64,000 bases of DNA from a virus. The DNA is taken from the IMG/VR virus record IMGVR_UViG_3300040801_001435; one strand, written 5' to 3'. Made by a program: the position numbers and the translations under genes. Below, piece by piece: positions 209-51,196 of this stretch (positions within the stretch are counted from its first letter, which is position 1; every line of letters begins with the position of its first letter). The notes below the pieces were generated by a model, which made no database searches, was not told the origin of the DNA, and worked only from the letters and a program-made list of their open reading frames with translations.

Positions 209-889
209 TTACATCCATAGTTTATCAAATTTCCCCCGTGATATATTTTTGAATGAAGTTCGTTTTCCAGAACGATGATCTTTTACAAGGTCTTGATCAA
301 TCTTGTAAGTTCTCATTCTATCTCCTCGCACACCATATCCTATCTGTTTTAATTTAATATCAGCATGTTTATCTGCAATCTTTTCTTCATACATTTCTCT
401 GAGTTTACTGATAATTGCTTCTTTTGCATCATTTAGATTTTTCTCCCGTTCTCTTCCTTGACGAGATTCTTTTAATCCAGTTGGAATATGAATAACTCTA
501 CAAGAACATTGTTTTTTATTTCTATGTTGTCCACCTTTTCCTGTTCCACTAAACCATTGAATTTTAAATTCGTCATCTGGGACATTTAATTCATCAAAAA
601 TGAAATTTCCTTCTTCAACAACACTTACACTAACAATGCTTGTATGAACTCTTCCTCTTTTCTCTGTCGGTGGATTTCTATGAAAGCAATGATTTCCACT
701 TTCATTCATGATTCTAGAATCATTAGTTTCTATACGAACGGTCACAACATGCTTAGAGACACTAAGCACTTCATATATTCAACGTCTATTATGAAAAAAT
801 TTTTCATAATACTCAAGTAAATCTTTTGTTAAAAGTTGTGCATCTTTCCCACCTTCTGATGCCTTAATCTCCATTAGATAAGTTTTCAT
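209..889 (-). CDS. prfA: class I peptide chain release factor, RF1-like, lacking domain 1, with in-frame TGA at 779-781
   Basis: GTGKGGQHRNK (GGQ), NPPTEKRGRVHTS (RF1-type PxT), RTY motif. The frame extends upstream of the track's GTG (769) through TGA to ATG 889: MKTYLMEIKASEGGKDAQLL...; ATG overlaps the upstream stop (ATGA). Confidence 0.88.
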
Positions 890-1080
890 TCTTTTATTCT
901 CCCTATTTTTGGAATTGTTTTAACAACTACTAATTTATATTCAACATATGGAGGAATATAAACTTTTAAAAAATCCTGTATCCAATAATACATGTCATAA
1001 TCATTCATATTAAATTTATAACAATTTCTTAATATACTATCAAACTCATTTGCTGTGACAAATAATTGTTTTCTAACCAT
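886..1080 (-). CDS. hypothetical protein
   Basis: 64 aa ORF whose stop overlaps the RF start. Confidence 0.55.
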   Translation of the reverse strand: MVRKQLFVTANEFDSILRNCYKFNMNDYDMYYWIQDFLKVYIPPYVEYKLVVVKTIPKIGRIKE

Positions 1081-23412: not shown

Positions 23413-24660
23413 CTATGTTTTGAATTGTATAAATGTTGTTCTATTAATAAGTTGAGCAAAATGTTCTTTATCGGCTTTTCTCATAAATATATTAGATATT
23501 GCAATTGGTGTATAATCATATTTTCCAGACTTTTCAATATCATATTTATTTCCAAAAGATGGATAATCAGGTAAACTATTTGTTGTTTCTGTTATTATAA
23601 ATCGTTTAATATGTTCTTTTGCTATTTCCTTATTTGTGTCATATCTTTTTTGTGCATCATCTGGTGAATCTGGAACATAAATTCGACTATATGTCGTTGA
23701 TTGATTAATTGAATTTGATGATATTCCACCGTCCTTTGATACTCCTATTTTTCTACCATCTGTTAGTTGAACATCTTTAACACTACTTTTCTTTTTTGGA
23801 ATTTTTGATTGTGGTACTACTTTATGTGCGTATCGCATATTACTAGTAACAAATACAGGAACATGTCCATCTTTATTATATTTTTTAGAAATATCTGTGA
23901 ATGGAATTTCTTTAACTATTTTTGTCAATCTATCCATATCTGGAAATAAATTAATTTTTTGACTTTTTTGATCTTTTAATTTTAATATATTAATATAATA
24001 ACCTACAATTTCATTTTTTGTTTTCCCATCAAACGAAAAGTTATCAAAATAATAAAATGTGAAATTATTTGTTGGTTTATATATATCTATTAAATAGCTT
24101 GGAATATTTGCGTCATTTGACATTTTAAGTAACATTTGTTCATACTGAAAATTGTTCTTATTTTCAGTAGCACCAAAGTGTTTAAAATCAAATACATCAC
24201 CATAATTTTCAGTAAGCCATCCTTCATAATTTTTGAGAGCCTGATATGCCGTTATGTTATTTTCAATTGTATTATATGTATTTGTTGTTCCCATATAATA
24301 TAAAATAGGATGTACTAATACTAATGTTACATGTATATGGTTCTCATTAAAATTAAGAGGCCCTTGTGGTTCAACGTTAATACATAATAATGTTTGATTA
24401 AATATTGTTTTCCATTCTTTATCATGAAATTGACTTATTTCATCAACTATTCTAATATTTAGTTTTATTTCTGGAAAATCATTTAAAGAAACACGTTCCA
24501 TAAATGATTTTACAGTAATTTGTGGTAAAAAAATTTTAAGTATGGCTATACCAGCCATACTATAAACAGGGGATCTTAAAAAACAGCAAAAATTACAATC
24601 TACTACTTTTTGCTCTTCTATTTTTGCTGTTATTTCATAGTGAAATTGTGCTGAATTCAT
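23413..24660 (-). CDS. hypothetical protein, possibly tail/baseplate hub-like
   Basis: 415 aa, beta-rich N-terminus; no diagnostic motif, so the function is a guess. Confidence 0.3.
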   Translation of the reverse strand: MNSAQFHYEITAKIEEQKVVDCNFCCFLRSPVYSMAGIAILKIFLPQITVKSFMERVSLNDFPEIKLNIRIVDEISQFHDKEWKTIFNQTLLCINVEPQGPLNFNENHIHVTLVLVHPILYYMGTTNTYNTIENNITAYQALKNYEGWLTENYGDVFDFKHFGATENKNNFQYEQMLLKMSNDANIPSYLIDIYKPTNNFTFYYFDNFSFDGKTKNEIVGYYINILKLKDQKSQKINLFPDMDRLTKIVKEIPFTDISKKYNKDGHVPVFVTSNMRYAHKVVPQSKIPKKKSSVKDVQLTDGRKIGVSKDGGISSNSINQSTTYSRIYVPDSPDDAQKRYDTNKEIAKEHIKRFIITETTNSLPDYPSFGNKYDIEKSGKYDYTPIAISNIFMRKADKEHFAQLINRTTFIQFKT

Positions 24661-26528
24661 AATTGATTCATAATTTCCTCAAATTGTTCATATGTTATAA
24701 TTTTTGTTCCATTTTTCTCTGCTTTCATCATTTTGTTTGATTTCTTATTTGGATTATCTGTCACAAGTAACTGTGTTTTTTTTGTAATTGACTTATCTGC
24801 AACATGTCCTTTATTTTCAATATAATTGAAATACCAATCTCTTCCACGATCATAAGGATCTTTCCCAGTAAAACATATATTAATTGATTCTTTGTTAGTA
24901 TCTATTTTTTGCACATTGTCGTCAATTTTAATTATTTTAAGCAACGCATCAATATATGTTTTATTATCATGGAGATAATCAAAAATATCTCTTGCTCGTT
25001 CTATTCCTATATTTGGTATTTCCATTAGCCGTTCTTCAGAAATCCGCCGCAATAAATCAAAACTAACAGATTTAAGAATATCTTTACTAAGAGATCTACC
25101 AACACCATCAATATTGAAACTTGCTAACACTCTCCAATTAGGAACAGGATTATTTTTAACTTTATCAACTTCTAAAATGAAGTTTTTAGAAGAAACATCG
25201 CCAAACTTATCAAGTTTAATTATATCACTGTATGTCAAATTGAATACATCAACTAAATTAGAACACCCCAAGTCAGTAATTAATTTACTAACTGTGCTTG
25301 GGCCAATATTTTCAATTCCTATCTTTTTGATACTGTCTGTTAATCGTTTTTGTAATGTACTTCCACATACATCATTTAAACATCTTAAATTTGGACCATC
25401 CCATGTTAATATGGATTCACATGAGGGACAATGTGTTGGTGGAACTATTTTCTTACTATTCTTTCCTCTTGATATTAAACTGTGATACTGTGGGATTATT
25501 TCACCAGCTTTTTGTAAAATAATTTTATCACCAATTCTAATATCATTATCCATAACAAATTTCCAGTTATGTAAATTGACACGTTTATTAATATTTCCTG
25601 CTATTTCTACAGGTTCAACAATACCAACAGGAGTTATTGCAGATTTTCCTATACTTAATTCAATATCTATTATAGTTGTTTCACCAGTTGGATTTTTAGG
25701 TTTAAGTGCTAATTCTCCTCTTGGATGATGTGACGTATTTCCTAAAGACTCCTTATATTCTTTATCTTTAAGTTTTATTACAATACCATCCATAGGAAAT
25801 CCAAGCGATTTAAATTGATTTTTAGCATATTCTATTGCATCTGACATATTTACTAAATTGGTTTCTATACTGTATGTATTGAAATCTACAAAATGTATAT
25901 ATCCTAAAAACTTAGAATCAACAGTGTCTTTACCTAAAATTCCACCAACTGCACTTCTTGATGTTTTATATTTATCTCCATTTCCTCTAACAAACAATGA
26001 TCTATTGTTTTCAAAAACATCATCTCTAATTAGAATTTCGCCACGAACATCTTTTTGGACATCTGGTAAATGTATTACTATTGGTGTACCTTCGTTATCT
26101 TTTGTAATACACACGATGATACTAATTTTATCACTAAGATCAATTCCAACATCTTCTTTTGCTCTTGCTCTTGTATATAATAGTAATTTTTCATGCTCAA
26201 AATTTGCACTTATACCATCATATTTCGGTTCAATTATAAAAAGTTCACTTTCTGATCTTGCATATTTTTTTGCCCATAATAAAACATTATTAATATCATA
26301 TGCTTTATCAAGAGATATCATTGTTACTGATTTCTTTATTTTCTTCTTTTTGTCACTATTTGGAATTTCTTCTAAATAATTAATAATAAGTTCATTATTT
26401 GGATCAAGTTTTTTAAGTGCTTCTATAAGATTATCATAATCAATGTCAGATATTTCAGGAGTACCATTAATAAATTGTTGATTATGATATTCTATTGTTT
26501 CTTCAAGTAATTTAATTTCTTTTTTCAT
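24657..26528 (-). CDS. ligA: NAD-dependent DNA ligase
   Basis: ISDIDYD, EPKYDG, RGE, DGIVIK, TSHHPRGELALK, Zn finger CPSC...C, HhH repeats, C-terminal BRCT. Confidence 0.95.
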   Translation of the reverse strand: MKKEIKLLEETIEYHNQQFINGTPEISDIDYDNLIEALKKLDPNNELIINYLEEIPNSDKKKKIKKSVTMISLDKAYDINNVLLWAKKYARSESELFIIEPKYDGISANFEHEKLLLYTRARAKEDVGIDLSDKISIIVCITKDNEGTPIVIHLPDVQKDVRGEILIRDDVFENNRSLFVRGNGDKYKTSRSAVGGILGKDTVDSKFLGYIHFVDFNTYSIETNLVNMSDAIEYAKNQFKSLGFPMDGIVIKLKDKEYKESLGNTSHHPRGELALKPKNPTGETTIIDIELSIGKSAITPVGIVEPVEIAGNINKRVNLHNWKFVMDNDIRIGDKIILQKAGEIIPQYHSLISRGKNSKKIVPPTHCPSCESILTWDGPNLRCLNDVCGSTLQKRLTDSIKKIGIENIGPSTVSKLITDLGCSNLVDVFNLTYSDIIKLDKFGDVSSKNFILEVDKVKNNPVPNWRVLASFNIDGVGRSLSKDILKSVSFDLLRRISEERLMEIPNIGIERARDIFDYLHDNKTYIDALLKIIKIDDNVQKIDTNKESINICFTGKDPYDRGRDWYFNYIENKGHVADKSITKKTQLLVTDNPNKKSNKMMKAEKNGTKIITYEQFEEIMNQL

Positions 26529-27661
26529 ATTAGTATCCTCAATTTATTATATTTAGCAACTCCAAGAATAACTCCTAATATACACCATAGAAAAAATATT
26601 ATTGATAATAATGGTATAAACATTTTATTTCTCCGTATCATCTTTAAATTCAATTAATTTTACTGATATATCTTCATTACCAAAATTTTCAGAAATAATT
26701 GATGTTATCCAGTTCTCAACTTCTTTTACACCAGATCCTTTAATATCTTCCCAAAATTCATCACATCCTTCTTTTAATTCAATACTAAATTTATATGTTT
26801 TCATTTATAAATTCCATAAGTTCATCAGTATCGTTAATAAGATATTTATAATCCCCTTCAGATATAATTCCTTTTTGTACAAGAACATCTGTTAGTTTTG
26901 CTACATAGGTTCTCACTTTTTTAAGCTGCTCTTCTTTATCTAAAGCATATAAATAATCAGAAACATGTGTATCAACAGGGTACGTTGATCTTCCTCCCAT
27001 CCAAGACTCTTGTTTAATTTCTATTTGCATAGTTCCCATCCGTATTCTGATAGTTTAGATATACATGCCTCATACATAACATTATATGAAAATTGATCAA
27101 TATCATTTATTGGAATATCCAGTAAATGTGTTGTTGGTATAACATCACAACTTGGATAATCCTTATGTTTCCATTTGTTAGATGTAATTATCTTTTGTAA
27201 CACTTTATCCCAATTTAAATAAAAGTCATTTGGATATTGATCTATATTAACATATGGGTTGTCTTCAAGAATTTCATTAATATCGTTTTCAAATTGAGAA
27301 TCATTAAGATATTGTCTCATTGCTTAGATATTATCTCCGATTTTAAATTTTGTCGTTTTAGCATTTCTTTTACTAATTCAAGTTCTCGTACATCACATTC
27401 AGATTGGGCTTTACCCATTTTCAACTCAGCGTATGTGCAATATGCCGAATAAAAGCACATACCAATAATAAACATTTCTTTTTGATCTGGTGTCATCTGG
27501 TTAATAATATTAATCCGTTCTTCATCAACTTTTGCTATTTTAGGACTATCAAACAATATTGTTCCATTTTCGTCGGTCTCGTATATATCTTTCAACATTC
27601 AAATTGTTCCTTTCATAATAAAATTGTACCTATACACATTGTGTATAGGATTTGTTTATAG

Positions 27662-43726: not shown

Positions 43727-44919
43727 TATATAAATCTCCCAAACCTATCAACTTCCGTATATGGAATAAGTGATACAGTTCTTCCTGGTTTTTGACTACT
43801 TACTGTAATTGGACAAATTCTTCCAAAATGTGTTTCATGAATTGTTTGTATTTCTTTTGGAGGATGTTCTACACCAGGAGATACCATATTAACTTTATGT
43901 TGAGGAATACTACTGAAGAAATTTACTGGTTCATATATATAATTTCCTGATAATCCTCCCATTTTCTTTCCAGCGGTATTAGTTTGTTGTTTTTTACCAG
44001 AAGCTCTAAAATATTTAATTATAGACATATTATCTATTTTTATTTCATCATATAAAATCCCTCGCCAAACTTGTTTAGCGAAATTTGCGATTTTATCAAA
44101 AAATGGCCGCAATAACAACTCAATAAAAATTAATCTTTTATTAGCCAAGTCAACAAAGTTAAACGTGTCTTTATGAATATATTTATTAAGTGCCCATACT
44201 AACAAATATTCCAAATCAGAAGAAGAATAACAAGTATTATACAATTCATCTGTATAATAGTCAAAAATTACATCAGATATAAATTGTCTTGCTTTATCTA
44301 TATCATCAATGTTATTATTTCCAAAAGCATTTCTAAAATAAGTTACAATTTCCTCATCCGGATGAGTATCATGTTGTTTTTTGTGATTTTTAAGAAACGC
44401 ATTATATAATTCTAAACTTTCAACCTTTTCAAAAAATAATTGAAAGAAATATGATAGTGGTATATTTATTCCAGTTAAAATTGCAATATCATCTTTAAAA
44501 TAAATAGTTAAACCATTCAACAATCCATAGAATTGTATACTTTTTTCTTTGATAATAATAGGATAATCAACAACATACATTGCTGGAACATATATTGTTC
44601 CATTTAGATTGAATGTGCATCCATCTAACAATGTTGGTATTAGAATGTTTAAAAATGTTTTTTCATATTTTTCTTCATCTGTTGTATATGCGTCAGTTTT
44701 TATTATTAGTTCGCTAAAACAACTATTAAATAACCCGATATAATTTATCCGTTCTTTGAAATCTATATTTTTAACATTAATATATCTATTACCAAATTTC
44801 AATAAATATTCCATAGCAACAGAAGCAAAATATGGTATTATGCTATATTGATATTCTCTGAAATTAGTAACAGATAATATATCAGTATTTGGTTGTTTTC
44901 TTTTTTGTAGTGTATTCAT
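43726..44919 (-). CDS. phage RNA polymerase beta subunit, N-terminal part
   Basis: Ends with IHETHFGRICPI...GR (beta VHPTHYGRVCPI region); coupled to the beta-C gene. Confidence 0.75.
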   Translation of the reverse strand: MNTLQKRKQPNTDILSVTNFREYQYSIIPYFASVAMEYLLKFGNRYINVKNIDFKERINYIGLFNSCFSELIIKTDAYTTDEEKYEKTFLNILIPTLLDGCTFNLNGTIYVPAMYVVDYPIIIKEKSIQFYGLLNGLTIYFKDDIAILTGINIPLSYFFQLFFEKVESLELYNAFLKNHKKQHDTHPDEEIVTYFRNAFGNNNIDDIDKARQFISDVIFDYYTDELYNTCYSSSDLEYLLVWALNKYIHKDTFNFVDLANKRLIFIELLLRPFFDKIANFAKQVWRGILYDEIKIDNMSIIKYFRASGKKQQTNTAGKKMGGLSGNYIYEPVNFFSSIPQHKVNMVSPGVEHPPKEIQTIHETHFGRICPITVSSQKPGRTVSLIPYTEVDRFGRFI

Positions 44920-46880
44920 TACAATTGTAATGCCTTTAATAGTGTTGTCACTACTTTCTTTGTTCCAACTTCCATCGTAATATCTGTTGGCATTTCATAA
45001 TATCCTTTTTCTATAAGTTGTTCTAATAAATTTTCTTTTCCAGCAGTATAGTCAGATTTAACAGTATATAATTCATGAAGTGCTTTAGGACATCCAGAAC
45101 TTAATATAGCTTCGGCTTCCATTTGTCCTACTCTAACGCCACCTTTTAGTGCTCTACCCTTCACTGGTTGTTTTGTAATAGATTTATATGGACCAACATT
45201 TCTAGATGCTATTATTTTTTCTGATATTTTATTTAATTTAACAGTATAAATTGGTGCACACATTATCCCATCAACAGTCTTATCTATTGCTGGAAATGGT
45301 AGCTCAATACGCAAACATTGACGCATATATTGTAAAAACTTTCTGCTTTGAAATACTGGTTCATTCAATTGCACTGAGTTGTTTTTAATCTTTTCAATAT
45401 TGATGTGTTTAAATGGTGGTGCTTCAACAAACAAATTGGAAGCAAATATGCTATCTATAACAGTTTTTCTAATAGACGTATCATTATCCATATTATTAAT
45501 CAATCTTTCAACATCACTACTATATTCAATATCGTTGAAATTATCAATGATATTTAGTTTAATCCATTTAAGTGTATCTGTAATTTTATCAGGATTTGTA
45601 CGAATATAGTTATCACAAATCATCATATTTTTTGATATTAATGCTTCAGGCATGACACTTATATTCATTCGACTTGGAACACCAAATGAATTAAACATTA
45701 CATCAATTGGTTTATTTGTTATTGTTGATATTGGTCTTAATTCATCTGGTAGAATATGTCCAACAACACCTTTTCCTGCATATCTATTGCATATTTTATC
45801 ACCAACTTTTGTATTTTCTTCTTTATAAATATCACACTCGATAATATATACAGCATTCAATATATCGTTTCTATTGGTTGTTATATTATCTTGTCTATTT
45901 GAAAATACAAAGTATTTTGCCATTATAAATTTGCAATATTCGTCACTGAAAGTATTGTTCAAGTCGAAAAATGCATTCATTGCATATTTCTTAAAATACA
46001 AAATATGCATGTTCTCTAAAACATTTTGTAAGTTATCATCAATAAGTCTAACATCATCTTTCAACTTATGAATTCTATATCCTTGAATAATACCACTGTT
46101 TATTTTTGTTTCAATTGGTTCTGTAGAGAAATTTGATGACCCATGATCAAATCCTATCATATCAGATAGATTCATTGATTTAAGCATTATTGTCATTTTT
46201 TGCTTTATATCGCTCATTGAATGATAATCTGATATTTTTGGTTCTATTTTCATTGCAAATATATTATTTGTTATTTGCTGACCAATAGCAGGAAAATATT
46301 TGAAAGATTCTACATCATTTTTATATATTGGTTGAAATATTGAATGTTCAAATACCGGAATAATAACTCTATCTATATACCGGTGTTTTGCTTTATTTGC
46401 AAAACTTTCAGATATAACAATTCCATCTTCATGATTATATCCAAAAAATGGCATCATTGCTGTATAAGCATTATATCCAAATGATGGTACTCCTGTTCTG
46501 AAACAATCATATTCGTATATAATGTCACCTTTCATAAAAGGTGTATTTGATGGTAAACAAAATCGTAAACTTGAACTGAAAATACCTATAGATTTTTTAA
46601 TAAGAGGTATTTCTTTAATTTCTATTTTATTCAATCCTGTATAGTGTATAACAATAATGTCATTATTTTTATAAATAACATTCCCATCATCTTTTGCTAT
46701 ACATATTCCAAGTGGACTATTATTTGTTATATCTCGATAATCTGTTGATGTCACATATGGTATTTCACAATTAGTGTGTGTTAGTGCTTGTGTTATTTGT
46801 TTTGCTGCCATCTGCATTCTTGTGCTATCACAAGAACCATCAAACGGCTGGCCTGCTAGATTTGAGCTTACTATCGACAT
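44919..46880 (-). CDS. phage RNA polymerase beta subunit, C-terminal part
   Basis: RMQMAAKQITQA, GYNHEDGIVIS, GDKICNRYAGKGVV, GVPSRMN, KGGVRVGQME. Confidence 0.93.
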   Translation of the reverse strand: MSIVSSNLAGQPFDGSCDSTRMQMAAKQITQALTHTNCEIPYVTSTDYRDITNNSPLGICIAKDDGNVIYKNNDIIVIHYTGLNKIEIKEIPLIKKSIGIFSSSLRFCLPSNTPFMKGDIIYEYDCFRTGVPSFGYNAYTAMMPFFGYNHEDGIVISESFANKAKHRYIDRVIIPVFEHSIFQPIYKNDVESFKYFPAIGQQITNNIFAMKIEPKISDYHSMSDIKQKMTIMLKSMNLSDMIGFDHGSSNFSTEPIETKINSGIIQGYRIHKLKDDVRLIDDNLQNVLENMHILYFKKYAMNAFFDLNNTFSDEYCKFIMAKYFVFSNRQDNITTNRNDILNAVYIIECDIYKEENTKVGDKICNRYAGKGVVGHILPDELRPISTITNKPIDVMFNSFGVPSRMNISVMPEALISKNMMICDNYIRTNPDKITDTLKWIKLNIIDNFNDIEYSSDVERLINNMDNDTSIRKTVIDSIFASNLFVEAPPFKHINIEKIKNNSVQLNEPVFQSRKFLQYMRQCLRIELPFPAIDKTVDGIMCAPIYTVKLNKISEKIIASRNVGPYKSITKQPVKGRALKGGVRVGQMEAEAILSSGCPKALHELYTVKSDYTAGKENLLEQLIEKGYYEMPTDITMEVGTKKVVTTLLKALQL

Positions 46881-47034
46881 ATTTATCCAACTCGTTTAAG
46901 ATATCTGTTACATATTGTTCAATAATAATTGGTTTAATCTTTTCACCTCTAACGATTCTAGTTAATAATCTAGTTATATGATTCTTTATCTCATCTCTTG
47001 GTTTTAACATTTTAAATTATCCTCGTTAAAAAAA

Positions 47035-47054
47035 TTGGGGCAATATTGCCCCAA
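47035..47054 (-). terminator. intrinsic terminator
   Basis: Perfect palindrome ttggggcaatattgccccaa, with a T-run 3' on the minus strand. Confidence 0.75.
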
Positions 47055-47066
47055 TATCATTATTAT

Positions 47067-47618
47067 TTATCCTAACGTAGGAATAGTACCATTATTCAAT
47101 AGTTCAACTACTGCTTTTTCACATTTTTCATCATTTTCAATATTATTCTTAGCATAATATATATGATCGACATTTTGCAAAATGTTTCGTGCCATTTTTC
47201 TTGAAATTTTACTCAAATCATTAAGGACTGTTGCTATTAGTTCTTTATTCTCGCCTTTTTCGCCCTTTTCAGTTTCATACTCATAGCTATTGAGTTCTCC
47301 GGCAACAAATACCATATCACCAACACTCATATTTTCTAAAGCATAAATTGCGGGTTGGCCCCAACATTTAACATCTAGCCAACAAGTCTTCATTGATTTT
47401 GCTACTTTTCTTGCTTCATCTTTTGCTTTTTTAATTTCTTCATTACTCATGCCTGGAGTTATATTTAGTGCCTCATTATATTTTTTTACACTAAATACCT
47501 CTTTGTTTGTTGCCATACGGAATTTAACACCAGTTGCATCATCACTACTTTTCTTAGGAAGTTCTTTAGGTTCTGTTCCAATGTGTCCAAGTCTGATATC
47601 AATTTGAAAGCTATGCAT
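47067..47618 (-). CDS. ssb: single-stranded DNA-binding protein (OB fold)
   Basis: GHIGTEP, KFRMATN, WLDVKCWG, VGDMVFVAGELN; no acidic PF tail. Confidence 0.75.
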   Translation of the reverse strand: MHSFQIDIRLGHIGTEPKELPKKSSDDATGVKFRMATNKEVFSVKKYNEALNITPGMSNEEIKKAKDEARKVAKSMKTCWLDVKCWGQPAIYALENMSVGDMVFVAGELNSYEYETEKGEKGENKELIATVLNDLSKISRKMARNILQNVDHIYYAKNNIENDEKCEKAVVELLNNGTIPTLG

Positions 47619-47630
47619 TTGTTTTCTCCT

Positions 47631-50600
47631 TTAGATTAACCGACCATAACATAATTTGAAGTAAACATTCATGTCGGTTTGTTCAGATATTTCAAAATTA
47701 AAATTAGGAAGTGTTTTCCTATTAGGCTGAAATAGTGCTCCTAAGAATGGATCAATATTTACAGCTATACTTTTATCATTGAGTTTTTTGGTTATTTTTT
47801 TATTTTGATTATATCGCCAAAACTCAACAGGGTCATTTTTGTTATTTGTTAGAAACATATTTGCAAATATCATTTCTACAAACGAAGAATATGGTGTACC
47901 AACAGATAAAATATATTCCATCATTTTTTGATAATATACACTGGGATGTTCAACTGTATATTTTCTTGTAGTCTCTTTAGTAATTAGTAGTTGATTTACA
48001 CCATTAATAATTGAAATAACATCATCGTTATATATTTCATAATAATTATCGTTATATATTAATGTTGTTCCATCTTTTTTTTCAAATCCATTTAGATTAT
48101 ATATTTCTTCTGGGAAATCATCATTATTAAAATGACATAATATTTTATTATCATTTAATTCGATATCTACTAAATGATTCTTCATAAACGATATAATTTC
48201 TTTTTTTACGTTAATATTTGCTGCACCACTAGTATGAAATGTTTGCATTGTTAATTGTGTTAATCTTTCAGATATGCTTTGTGCTGCAATTATACCAACA
48301 TATTGTGATACAAAGTTACGTTCACCAAAACACTTTTTACACATTTTAAATTTAGGATTAATGCATGTTATTGGAGATCGTATATAAACGTCTTTGCCGA
48401 TAAAACTTATTGCAGTTTCTAAATCAAATGTGCCTGAGTTATTATCAATGACATAATTTTTACCAACAAGTGAATAAGCATGATTTTCATTAATAACATG
48501 TATTTTTAAATAATTTGTTGTACAACAATCATCCATATCTATCTCTAAAGGACTTAATGCCATTGCCAATGATCTTTCCATATAGCCGCTATCAGGAGTG
48601 GCTTTACTTTTATCACCAATACCTTTTCGACTTCCTGGAGCACCTCTGAAGAATTCCTCTTCAGTAAATCCTATTAATAGATTTGATTTTATTGGACTTT
48701 TAATGATTTTGTTATTATCATCAGAAACATATCCGGCGTTTATACATATTTTCGCTAATTGATTAGCGTTAACTCTACTACCGGATTTATAAACATTTAA
48801 TAATTTATTGGTATTGCTACAAGATTCTATACATTTTTCTACAAGTGCTTTATTTACACAATATCCTACCATTATATTTTGTTTTGGTAGATTTTTAAAC
48901 ATCTGTTTATGTTTGTCATTGACAAACTCTAACATATCATCTATGTTCATTGATGGCGTATGGCTTGTAGAACTTATGAAATACATTAATTTTTTACTCA
49001 AATCAGTTAGTCTATCATAATAAATTGCTGATGTCTCTGAGTCTTTTAAAATCTTTTCACTTATTTTTCTTGATGTTTTTTTATCAATAATAAAGTCTAT
49101 TTCAATATCATCAACGAACCCACACCACTTATTTAATAAACATAATCCATATGGATATATATTGTCATTAAATTTAACAGGTTGATTCAAATTATTATCA
49201 TATAATTCATCTGATTCTGGCAAAGTTTGTAAATTTTCAAGTTCAATTATTGGTTTATCATTACATGAAATTTGTGTTGATAGAACATATGCGCCGTATA
49301 ATGCTTCATGTCTTATTGAAGAAAGAATCCTGTTATCTGATTGGTAATGTGTTATATTTTTAACAAATGCATTTTCTTTCATTTGCTTCAATGATTCTAC
49401 ATCATGTACATAATATAATGCTAATTGATCACCATCTAAATCAGCATTCATCATTTCTAAAATTGGCGGCGATAATGCTATTGTTGTATAATCGTTATCT
49501 TCTGGAACAATTTCAACAACAGGTATGCTATGCGCCCATAATGTTGGTGGTCTATTCAAAAACACCAATCTATATAGTTGAATAGTTTCATCTTCATTTT
49601 CACAAAACCAATCCAAGAATTCTTGAAATTGTTCTTTTGATTTGTCAGACTGCATAAATTCATCATAACAATAATCATATTCCAATCCACGAATACGTGT
49701 CATATAGTACATGAAATGTGGTTTCCATAATGTATATAATATATCTTTACTTACTTTAATTTGATATGTTGGTAATGATGGATCACATCGTATAACTGCT
49801 CTTGCGCTAAAATCAACATTTTTACCAAGAACACTACCACGAATTAATCCTTTCTTTCCAGACAATTCATCATAATATGATTGATATATAACATTAACAT
49901 AATATTGATATTTTGATGCTTTTATATCATATTCAATTATAGTTGGGTCTATAAATGGGGAAGCATAATATTCATCAATATCATGTATATTCATTTTTTT
50001 AAGAAGTATATCAATCCACATTTGTTCATCATCATTAATACGACTAGCTATTGCCGCATTTGTTCTTTCGTATATTAATAATGTTGTATAGAACTTATTT
50101 ATTGGTGGTGTTCTAACCACTTTTGTTTGTGGATCATAAAATAATGCTCTCAAACTTGGTGGAATAACATGAATAAATGACATTACACATTTATCATAAA
50201 TATTTTCTATAACTGGCACTTTAATATATTTAGCTATTATTTTTAAGCATAAATAAAAACTATATATACCTGTTATATTTATTGGTAATAATAAAAACCC
50301 AGCATGATGAATAAATCGATTAAATACTTTAACCTCTGATAGGTCGTTACTTATTCCTATATATCTTTCGGTGTTTGTTAAATAATCGGCTCTATTTGGG
50401 TTTAATATTATACTATGTGTATTTCCTAATATTTTTGTTAATAGTGCTTTCGTAGTTGGTTTGAAACATGGAAATGTAAGATTGATCTTTCCAAAAACTT
50501 CATATCTTAATTCATTAGAATCACAAACAACGCCACACTTTGGACATTTTTGCTTTTCAAATAATGATCTGTCTCTATAATATTTACATTCTTGTCCGCA

Positions 50601-50729
50601 TGTATAGTTATTAACAGGTCCGAATATTTGTTCTGAAAACAGTCCAAATGGATCTATTTTCATATTCTTTAGAGTACCTTTTGGAGATGTTACATATCCT
50701 CCTAGTTCTGGATATATTATATCATTCAT
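47631..50729 (-). CDS. phage RNA polymerase beta' subunit (compact, unsplit)
   Basis: GLFSEQIFGP, Zn ribbon, GKKGLIRGSVLGKNVDFSARAVI, NRPPTL, NADLDGD, bridge helix, trigger loop TQLTMQTFHTSG. Confidence 0.95.
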   Translation of the reverse strand: MNDIIYPELGGYVTSPKGTLKNMKIDPFGLFSEQIFGPVNNYTCGQECKYYRDRSLFEKQKCPKCGVVCDSNELRYEVFGKINLTFPCFKPTTKALLTKILGNTHSIILNPNRADYLTNTERYIGISNDLSEVKVFNRFIHHAGFLLLPINITGIYSFYLCLKIIAKYIKVPVIENIYDKCVMSFIHVIPPSLRALFYDPQTKVVRTPPINKFYTTLLIYERTNAAIASRINDDEQMWIDILLKKMNIHDIDEYYASPFIDPTIIEYDIKASKYQYYVNVIYQSYYDELSGKKGLIRGSVLGKNVDFSARAVIRCDPSLPTYQIKVSKDILYTLWKPHFMYYMTRIRGLEYDYCYDEFMQSDKSKEQFQEFLDWFCENEDETIQLYRLVFLNRPPTLWAHSIPVVEIVPEDNDYTTIALSPPILEMMNADLDGDQLALYYVHDVESLKQMKENAFVKNITHYQSDNRILSSIRHEALYGAYVLSTQISCNDKPIIELENLQTLPESDELYDNNLNQPVKFNDNIYPYGLCLLNKWCGFVDDIEIDFIIDKKTSRKISEKILKDSETSAIYYDRLTDLSKKLMYFISSTSHTPSMNIDDMLEFVNDKHKQMFKNLPKQNIMVGYCVNKALVEKCIESCSNTNKLLNVYKSGSRVNANQLAKICINAGYVSDDNNKIIKSPIKSNLLIGFTEEEFFRGAPGSRKGIGDKSKATPDSGYMERSLAMALSPLEIDMDDCCTTNYLKIHVINENHAYSLVGKNYVIDNNSGTFDLETAISFIGKDVYIRSPITCINPKFKMCKKCFGERNFVSQYVGIIAAQSISERLTQLTMQTFHTSGAANINVKKEIISFMKNHLVDIELNDNKILCHFNNDDFPEEIYNLNGFEKKDGTTLIYNDNYYEIYNDDVISIINGVNQLLITKETTRKYTVEHPSVYYQKMMEYILSVGTPYSSFVEMIFANMFLTNNKNDPVEFWRYNQNKKITKKLNDKSIAVNIDPFLGALFQPNRKTLPNFNFEISEQTDMNVYFKLCYGRLI

Positions 50730-51196
50730 ATAGGATCCGTTATATCACTAGTATCCTTTAAAATATCCATAATAACTTTTTCAGCTAATTTTTCTTGTGT
50801 TCGTTTTCTACTGTGTGTTGTTGCTTTAAATTCTGCATTTTTATTATATCTTGTTTGTTCTAATGCTGCTTCATCTGTTACAAGATATGTATTTTTGAAT
50901 ATTGCTGGCGTTTTAATTGGAACACGTCTCAGCAAATGTTCGTCGGCATTTAATTTATTTTTAAATATATACGATGGTGTGAATTTAAATCGCAACGCAT
51001 CAATCCCACGTCGTTTATCAAAATATTTAAAACAAATAAATTTGCCTAATCCTCGTACAGTACAACTACTATCGAGAGTTGTTTTTTTTACAATTTCTTG
51101 GAATATATCATCTATTATCGAATGTATTTGATGGTCGGGAATATCTTTATATTTTTCAGATATTGCTAGTTCACAATCTTTTGGTAGGGTAAACAT
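50726..51196 (-). CDS. HU/IHF-like DNA-binding protein
   Basis: IIDDIFQEI...VRGLGKF...RFKFTPSYIFKNKLN. Confidence 0.6.
   Translation of the reverse strand: MFTLPKDCELAISEKYKDIPDHQIHSIIDDIFQEIVKKTTLDSSCTVRGLGKFICFKYFDKRRGIDALRFKFTPSYIFKNKLNADEHLLRRVPIKTPAIFKNTYLVTDEAALEQTRYNKNAEFKATTHSRKRTQEKLAEKVIMDILKDTSDITDPI

Follow-up and report, generated by a model that had tools for sequence, protein, structure and literature searches.

Can a phage gene with a stop codon in the middle of its reading frame still make a working protein, and if so, what might the stop be for? The question is raised by positions 209-889 (minus strand) of a 64,000-nucleotide stretch of viral DNA (IMG/VR record IMGVR_UViG_3300040801_001435), hereafter the window. 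A preliminary description had read this segment as an RF1-like release factor whose synthesis needs read-through of an in-frame UGA, which could act as a sensor of host RF2.

A release-factor gene interrupted by TGA

The segment is a single RF1-type release-factor gene interrupted by an in-frame TGA, and the original observation is confirmed: the ATG at 889 overlaps the preceding stop (ATGA), the TGA lies at 779-781 and the same frame continues behind it. The features are as follows:

209-889, minus strand: whole recoded gene for an RF1-type factor without domain 1, 226 residues (ATG 889-887, in-frame TGA 781-779, TAA 211-209)
782-889, minus strand: 5' segment of 36 codons, corresponding to strand 1 and helix 1 of release-factor domain 2 (PCRF match, structure model, dN/dS)
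779-781, minus strand: in-frame TGA, codon 37, in a conserved Trp column and followed by A at 778
212-778, minus strand: 3' segment of 189 codons in unchanged frame, with PPT at 665-673 and GGQ at 527-535 (dN/dS 0.152)
899-903, minus strand: Shine-Dalgarno (SD)-like GGGAG 5' of the ATG, read from the sequence
886-1080, minus strand: upstream ORF of 64 codons, whose TGA stop overlaps the ATG of the factor (ATGA)

The stop stands in the context CGT TGA A and frame 0 continues; a GTG follows four codons 3' of it, and at the TGA the window gene has neither a frameshift nor a CTT nor an internal SD. Translational coupling of the 64-codon ORF and the factor gene via the ATGA overlap is possible.

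For domain analyses the TGA was read as Trp, giving a protein of 226 residues. Pfam PCRF (PF03462) matches residues 3-88, thus spanning the TGA position (2.2e-18), and RF-1 (PF00472) matches residues 100-206 (2.5e-18). Among NCBIfam models prfA scores best (152 bits, followed by prfB with 98 and prfH with 39), and both PPT (residues 73-75) and GGQ (residues 119-121) are present, in line with the earlier assignment to the RF1 (PxT) type. All these scores are far under the full-length cut-offs (400 bits for the prfA equivalog) because domain 1 is missing, as had also been noted: the match to the prfA model, 347 positions long, begins at position 105. The accompanying comparison with PrfH holds for the missing domain 1 only, since the PrfH model itself (TIGR03072) gives 39.2 bits where 166.65 is the cut-off. 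The best structural-sequence relatives are solved RF1 chains (best E 1e-31), and alignments to them place the TGA at the Trp in "...QGWKFEV" or "...RRWRVEI", which bears out the proposed position on a conserved Trp. PPT, together with the conserved Thr in HTS, predicts that the factor releases at UAA and UAG but not at UGA. PPT is kept in nearly all relatives. The window protein is very divergent (tree branch length 2.11) and has His where relatives have Gln; in RF1 that Gln reads the third stop-codon base. Rare tripeptides replace PPT in a few relatives, namely SPT (L207, L228), PAN (L001), PDS (L002) and PVT (L115), SPT combining an RF2-type first residue with an RF1-type third residue.

An AlphaFold (AF2) model built from 19 family sequences has a mean pLDDT of 88.6 and exceeds 93 over residues 1-44, which form strand 1 and helix 1 of the codon-reading domain; Foldseek superposes it on ribosome-bound RF1 with TM 0.84-0.88. 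This confident modelling and the superposition indicate that the segment 5' of the TGA is part of the fold rather than a leader. With the window stop inside an essential domain, only the read-through product could work.

The window itself has 28% GC, no tRNA genes and, in positions 1-2500, no Rfam families; no near DNA match to it was found in the phage collection. Its gene content is consistent with a jumbo phage: two large genes match phage RNA polymerase beta subunit, split as in jumbo phages, and there are matches to NAD-dependent DNA ligase and to NUDIX hydrolase (44919-50747, 24660-26543 and 1153-1785, all minus strand), the three matched genes being free of internal TGA. Independent copies speak to the accuracy of the stop. 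The identical gene, TGA included, lies on three more JGI contigs (L083-L085), and two DNA runs of a microbial-mat metagenome, which may themselves come from the source sample, yield contigs with 0 differences over 583-850 and 647-829; the case in which reads would carry TGG is thus not what independent metagenome contigs display. Two metatranscriptome libraries from that mat sample gave contigs over just 100-327 and 373-540, none of which reaches the TGA; they may reflect transcription or DNA carry-over.

Conservation of the stop in a standard-code genome

Two IMG/VR scans with family alignments each returned more than 500 relatives, and the best 80 of each were taken. Together with loci from other assemblies, these best relatives make a set of 113 unique genes, on contigs with GC of 0.29-0.63, many of them above 100 kb. 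Exactly one in-frame TGA is present in 110 of the 113, at the Trp column, two in one gene and none in two genes (P0012 and P0007), which have TGG instead. When the first 74 unique genes are aligned by codon, the TGA of 73 falls in a single column, where the other gene has TGG; in genes from the second scan the TGA is at codon 36-39. The stop in the read-through genes is always TGA, never TAG or TAA, and no in-frame CTT TAG or CTT TGA occurs in the 113 genes of this main clade. About 36 conserved codons precede the TGA in all relatives listed; every one of these has the ATG, with a clear SD of the AGGAG/GGAG type 5' of it in most. Pairwise dN/dS in the relatives is 0.152 on the 5' side of the TGA and 0.152 on the 3' side. 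This is the pattern of read-through genes, a conserved in-frame stop with purifying selection on each side, and the three findings that could have undone the original reading (TGG in all close homologs, TGG in the reads, an unconserved upstream segment) did not materialize. The two TGG members show that the gate is dispensable. Kept in nearly all of these genes, the TGA has the look of a means of control rather than of damage to the gene.

In a tree of the family, whose deep branches are not resolved, cellular RF1 forms one long branch and the TGA state spans the phage family. A scan of genome contigs, in an outcome biased by the search patterns, returned mostly cellular RF1 of Patescibacteria. 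Gated phage-type factor genes were also seen in L115 (245 kb, in a Rhodospirillales MAG) and L116 (171 kb, in a Methanobacterium MAG), probably phage contigs mis-binned into cellular MAGs. Gene callers shorten the genes of this family, to database entries of 146-196 residues, and the family is therefore mis-annotated in public data.

Outside this gene, TGA is an ordinary stop, as the preliminary description had held. It terminates 27 of 93 ORFs in the window, 147 of 484 in G002, a complete relative of 362.8 kb, and 32% of ORFs across 54 flanking loci, and the other long genes of the 64-kb window have no mid-gene TGA. Reading TGA as sense changes the coding coverage of the window from 0.847 to 0.841, without gain; in G002 the coverage moves from 0.824 to 0.857 (0.846 with TAG as sense), a marginal gain. 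Eight TGA-joined ORFs of G002 have no Pfam matches, and in a crude, noisy count of neighbouring ORFs separated by a single stop (20-kb flanks, GC about 0.42) TGA is not more frequent than TAA or TAG. A tRNA(UCA) is absent both from the 818 tRNAs around the relatives and from the 44 of G002; the latter do include tRNA-Trp(CCA).

The more drastic explanations of the stop can be weighed on this ground. If the phage or its host read TGA as Trp throughout the genome (table 4), the stop would be accounted for at once, and RF1 genes do occur in TGA-recoded Jade phages; moreover, one database copy of a relative, seemingly full-length, was called under code 4. Such a code is nevertheless extremely improbable: it is contradicted by the long window genes and by the TGA stops and coding coverage given above, and a 735-kb relative follows the same standard-code pattern in 50 kb of flanks around its factor gene. 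Neither of the marks of a code 4 phage, many genes with in-frame TGA and a tRNA(UCA), is found. A split gene with restart, a selenocysteine UGA, a dead gene and a sequencing error are, even as a group, very unlikely. The GTG downstream of the TGA in the window could serve a restart, but the first in-frame start after the TGA is 4 to 157 codons away across the genes, mostly without SD, and no restart codon is conserved. A hairpin 3' of the TGA in some single-sequence folds (z from -3.6 to +0.7) could recall a SECIS element, against which argue the absence of a consensus structure and of an Rfam match, and the residue aligned is Trp. A dead gene would not be under equal selection on both sides of the TGA, and an error would not recur in independent contigs. 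Conservation of the TGA, the dN/dS of 0.15, TGA stops elsewhere and the lack of tRNA(UCA) exclude error, pseudogene and general recoding as candidates.

If the stop is read through, Trp is the likely residue at the UGA, since both exceptions have TGG there and cellular RF1 has Trp. An A after UGA makes a classic leaky context that tRNA-Trp decodes. Among the 73 main-clade TGA genes, 52 have A at +4, 19 have G, 2 have C and none has T, and in 70 the codon before the TGA is GGN. In the sister clade described below, the +4 base is C in 21 genes and A in 14, again never T. A +4U reportedly lowers read-through in bacteria (PMC5289835). No conserved stimulatory RNA structure was found, RNAalifold on 31 diverse genes giving no pairs, and read-through may therefore be just a low basal leak. 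An apparent CGCC/GGCG pairing was explained by codon usage.

Related gates and known precedents

Other relatives carry equivalent gates of other kinds. Homologues from huge phages (LR756501-4, LR745206) and related contigs are interrupted by a single in-frame TGA or by two, in other columns, at codons of about 31-59. In this sister clade (76 loci, 64 unique genes), one or two in-frame TGAs are present in 22 of the 64, while 40 have a CTT-stop +1 frameshift, with TGA in 26, TAG in 13 and TAA in one, and only two genes are open (ungated). An SD-like GGAGG or GGGGG stands just 5' in 30 of the 40 frameshift genes, usually 3 nt before the CTT as in prfB. In L276 the cassette (GGGGG, 3 nt, CTT TGA C) is at codon 36, close to the main-clade TGA position. 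The prfB-type +1 gate is thus absent from the window and present in 40 unique sister-clade genes. These cassettes are the strongest argument, though an indirect one, for a stop codon that acts as a sensor and not as a mere brake.

Stop-codon feedback in a release-factor gene is, to our knowledge, a textbook case only in bacterial prfB. The prfB gene (RF2) is likewise cut early by a stop, passed by +1 frameshift (an SD-like element, then CUU UGA C), its output depends on the speed with which the stop is read, and the sister-clade phage genes carry the same cassette; the window gene, in contrast, runs straight in frame, and its factor is RF1-type (PPT), so that a UGA gate would report RF2. Leaky UGA read by tRNA-Trp is itself not unprecedented: it makes the A1 protein of Q-beta and occurs at UGA-A contexts in E. 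coli. These cases are alike in the same-frame continuation, the UGA, the following A and the expected Trp, but there the product is a C-terminal extension of a complete protein whereas here the stop is inside an essential domain. All CUU-stop sites in RECODE belong to prfB (PMC10885494). Phage genes for RF1 and RF2 are already known (PMC7162821). Jade phages, which use code 4, likewise have a phage-borne RF1-type factor tied to UGA decoding, their RF1 being reported as standard-code and as belonging to a module that also comprises a UGA suppressor tRNA and TrpRS (10.1101/2021.08.26.457843); however, their genomes are full of in-frame TGAs, whereas here TGA is a stop in the genome and this gene alone is interrupted. 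PrfH (RFH) and ArfB are short paralogues, likewise without domain 1, but the window factor keeps an RF1-like codon-reading domain with PPT. No link of the window factor to RtcB was seen among its neighbours, which were not searched specifically. Our literature search, whose coverage mostly excluded subscription journals, returned no description of stop-codon gates in phage RF1-type genes.

What the stop codon may sense

We consider it probable that programmed UGA read-through yields a working RF1-type factor made of domains 2, 3 and 4, and that the gate senses termination capacity. The UGA at codon 37 would be read as Trp by an ordinary tRNA-Trp(CCA), supplied by host or phage and competing with host RF2, so that the majority of ribosomes would stop after a peptide of 36 residues and a minority would make the full factor. 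Slow termination at UGA, when RF2 is limiting or busy, would give more factor and fast termination less. The gate would thus do by read-through what the prfB switch does by frameshift, with the difference that, since PPT predicts UAA/UAG specificity, it would read RF2 and not its own factor, and would not be true autoregulation. We infer the response to RF2 from this arrangement; what the phage gains from sensing RF2 is a matter of conjecture. As a guess, the factor could provide extra termination at UAA and UAG and so unload RF2 during heavy phage translation. A gate tuned to inhibited RF2, one of the two conditions first imagined, would be less easily understood: about 30% of phage genes end in TGA and phages need RF2, which makes inhibition of RF2 by the phage unlikely. 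We therefore favour a homeostatic role, under saturation of RF2, over a response to its destruction.

A wider proposal, which we advance tentatively and think may well be wrong, extends this to the whole family as a "termination homeostat": stop-codon gates would monitor host RF2, RF1 or both and dose an RF1 without domain 1 accordingly. The gates would be either UGA read-through or a +1 frameshift at CUU-UGA, CUU-UAG or CUU-UAA, the gate codon setting which host factor is watched, and the domain-1-less RF1 would terminate at UAA and UAG without the usual interplay with RF3 and L11.

Two other functional accounts need to be considered. The UGA could be a fixed attenuator that trims output to a constant small fraction and senses nothing, abundant factor being harmful, for example if without domain 1 it is not recycled normally. 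The combination of a strong SD with an early stop would fit, as would the position of the gene among many, strongly transcribed tRNA genes in most relatives and the failure to find a stimulatory RNA structure; yet a weak SD would be a simpler way to attenuate, a mere trim would not call for TGA every time, and the sister clade carries the prfB cassette, a feedback device in prfB itself (PMC10885494), so that we regard this account as unlikely. Less likely still is a gate opened by time, in which a phage tRNA-Trp, or a suppressor missed by ARAGORN, raises UGA decoding later in infection, so that the factor would appear late. Recoded phages are known to have modules that change the code (Borges 2021 preprint), and relatives do have tRNA-Trp(CCA), in some cases directly 5' of the factor gene (L002 9911-9984, L015 8908-8980). 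Furthermore, U11:A24 is found in 15 of 21 unique phage tRNA-Trp(CCA) from L001-L082 and G002, against 35% U:A in other phage tRNAs, and G9 in 4 of the 21. U11:A24 is the state of the Hirsh UGA suppressor, and U11:A24 and G9 are each found in known UGA-misreading tRNA-Trp mutants. These states are also natural in many bacteria, and the enrichment is merely a hint at a gate opened by the phage. Against such timing, the 64-kb window lacks any tRNA, tRNA(UCA) is missing from the flanks of relatives and from G002, and general UGA suppression would lengthen about 30% of the phage proteins, those whose genes end in TGA.

The unique phage RF1-type genes with related gates, well over 100 in number, include prfB cassettes with an amber or an ochre stop as well as plain UGA read-through. 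They open to testing the question of how phages monitor and adjust host termination capacity, along with those of what a release factor without domain 1 is able to do and how read-through and frameshift gates were exchanged in evolution. The family-wide proposal, if true, would make this the first cross-factor, virus-borne version of prfB feedback.

The surroundings of the gene in relatives bear on translation as well. In most of them the factor gene lies within a large tRNA island, the 818 predicted tRNAs being spread over 66 of 82 loci (L001-L082; for example L011 2979-15698 and L009 3861-13096). ARAGORN predicts a two-piece (permuted) tmRNA adjoining the factor gene in L006 (10651-11164), L050 (10651-11114), L043 (11177-11598), L079 (11262-11631) and L005 (1711-2116); in L006 and L050 it begins inside the last 10 nt of the factor gene. 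This suggests that tmRNA and factor gene form a termination and rescue module. Some relatives also have predicted amber (CUA) or ochre (UUA) suppressor tRNAs, or tRNAs with odd anticodon loops, predicted as two- or four-base anticodons (L005 17158-17236, L006 14130-14206, L043 15700-15846, L079 14031-14105, L003 3057-3130, L053 3757-3828, L074 2679-2751 and 6746-6834). In these suppressor-bearing relatives TAG is the rarest stop, at about 9% of ORFs.
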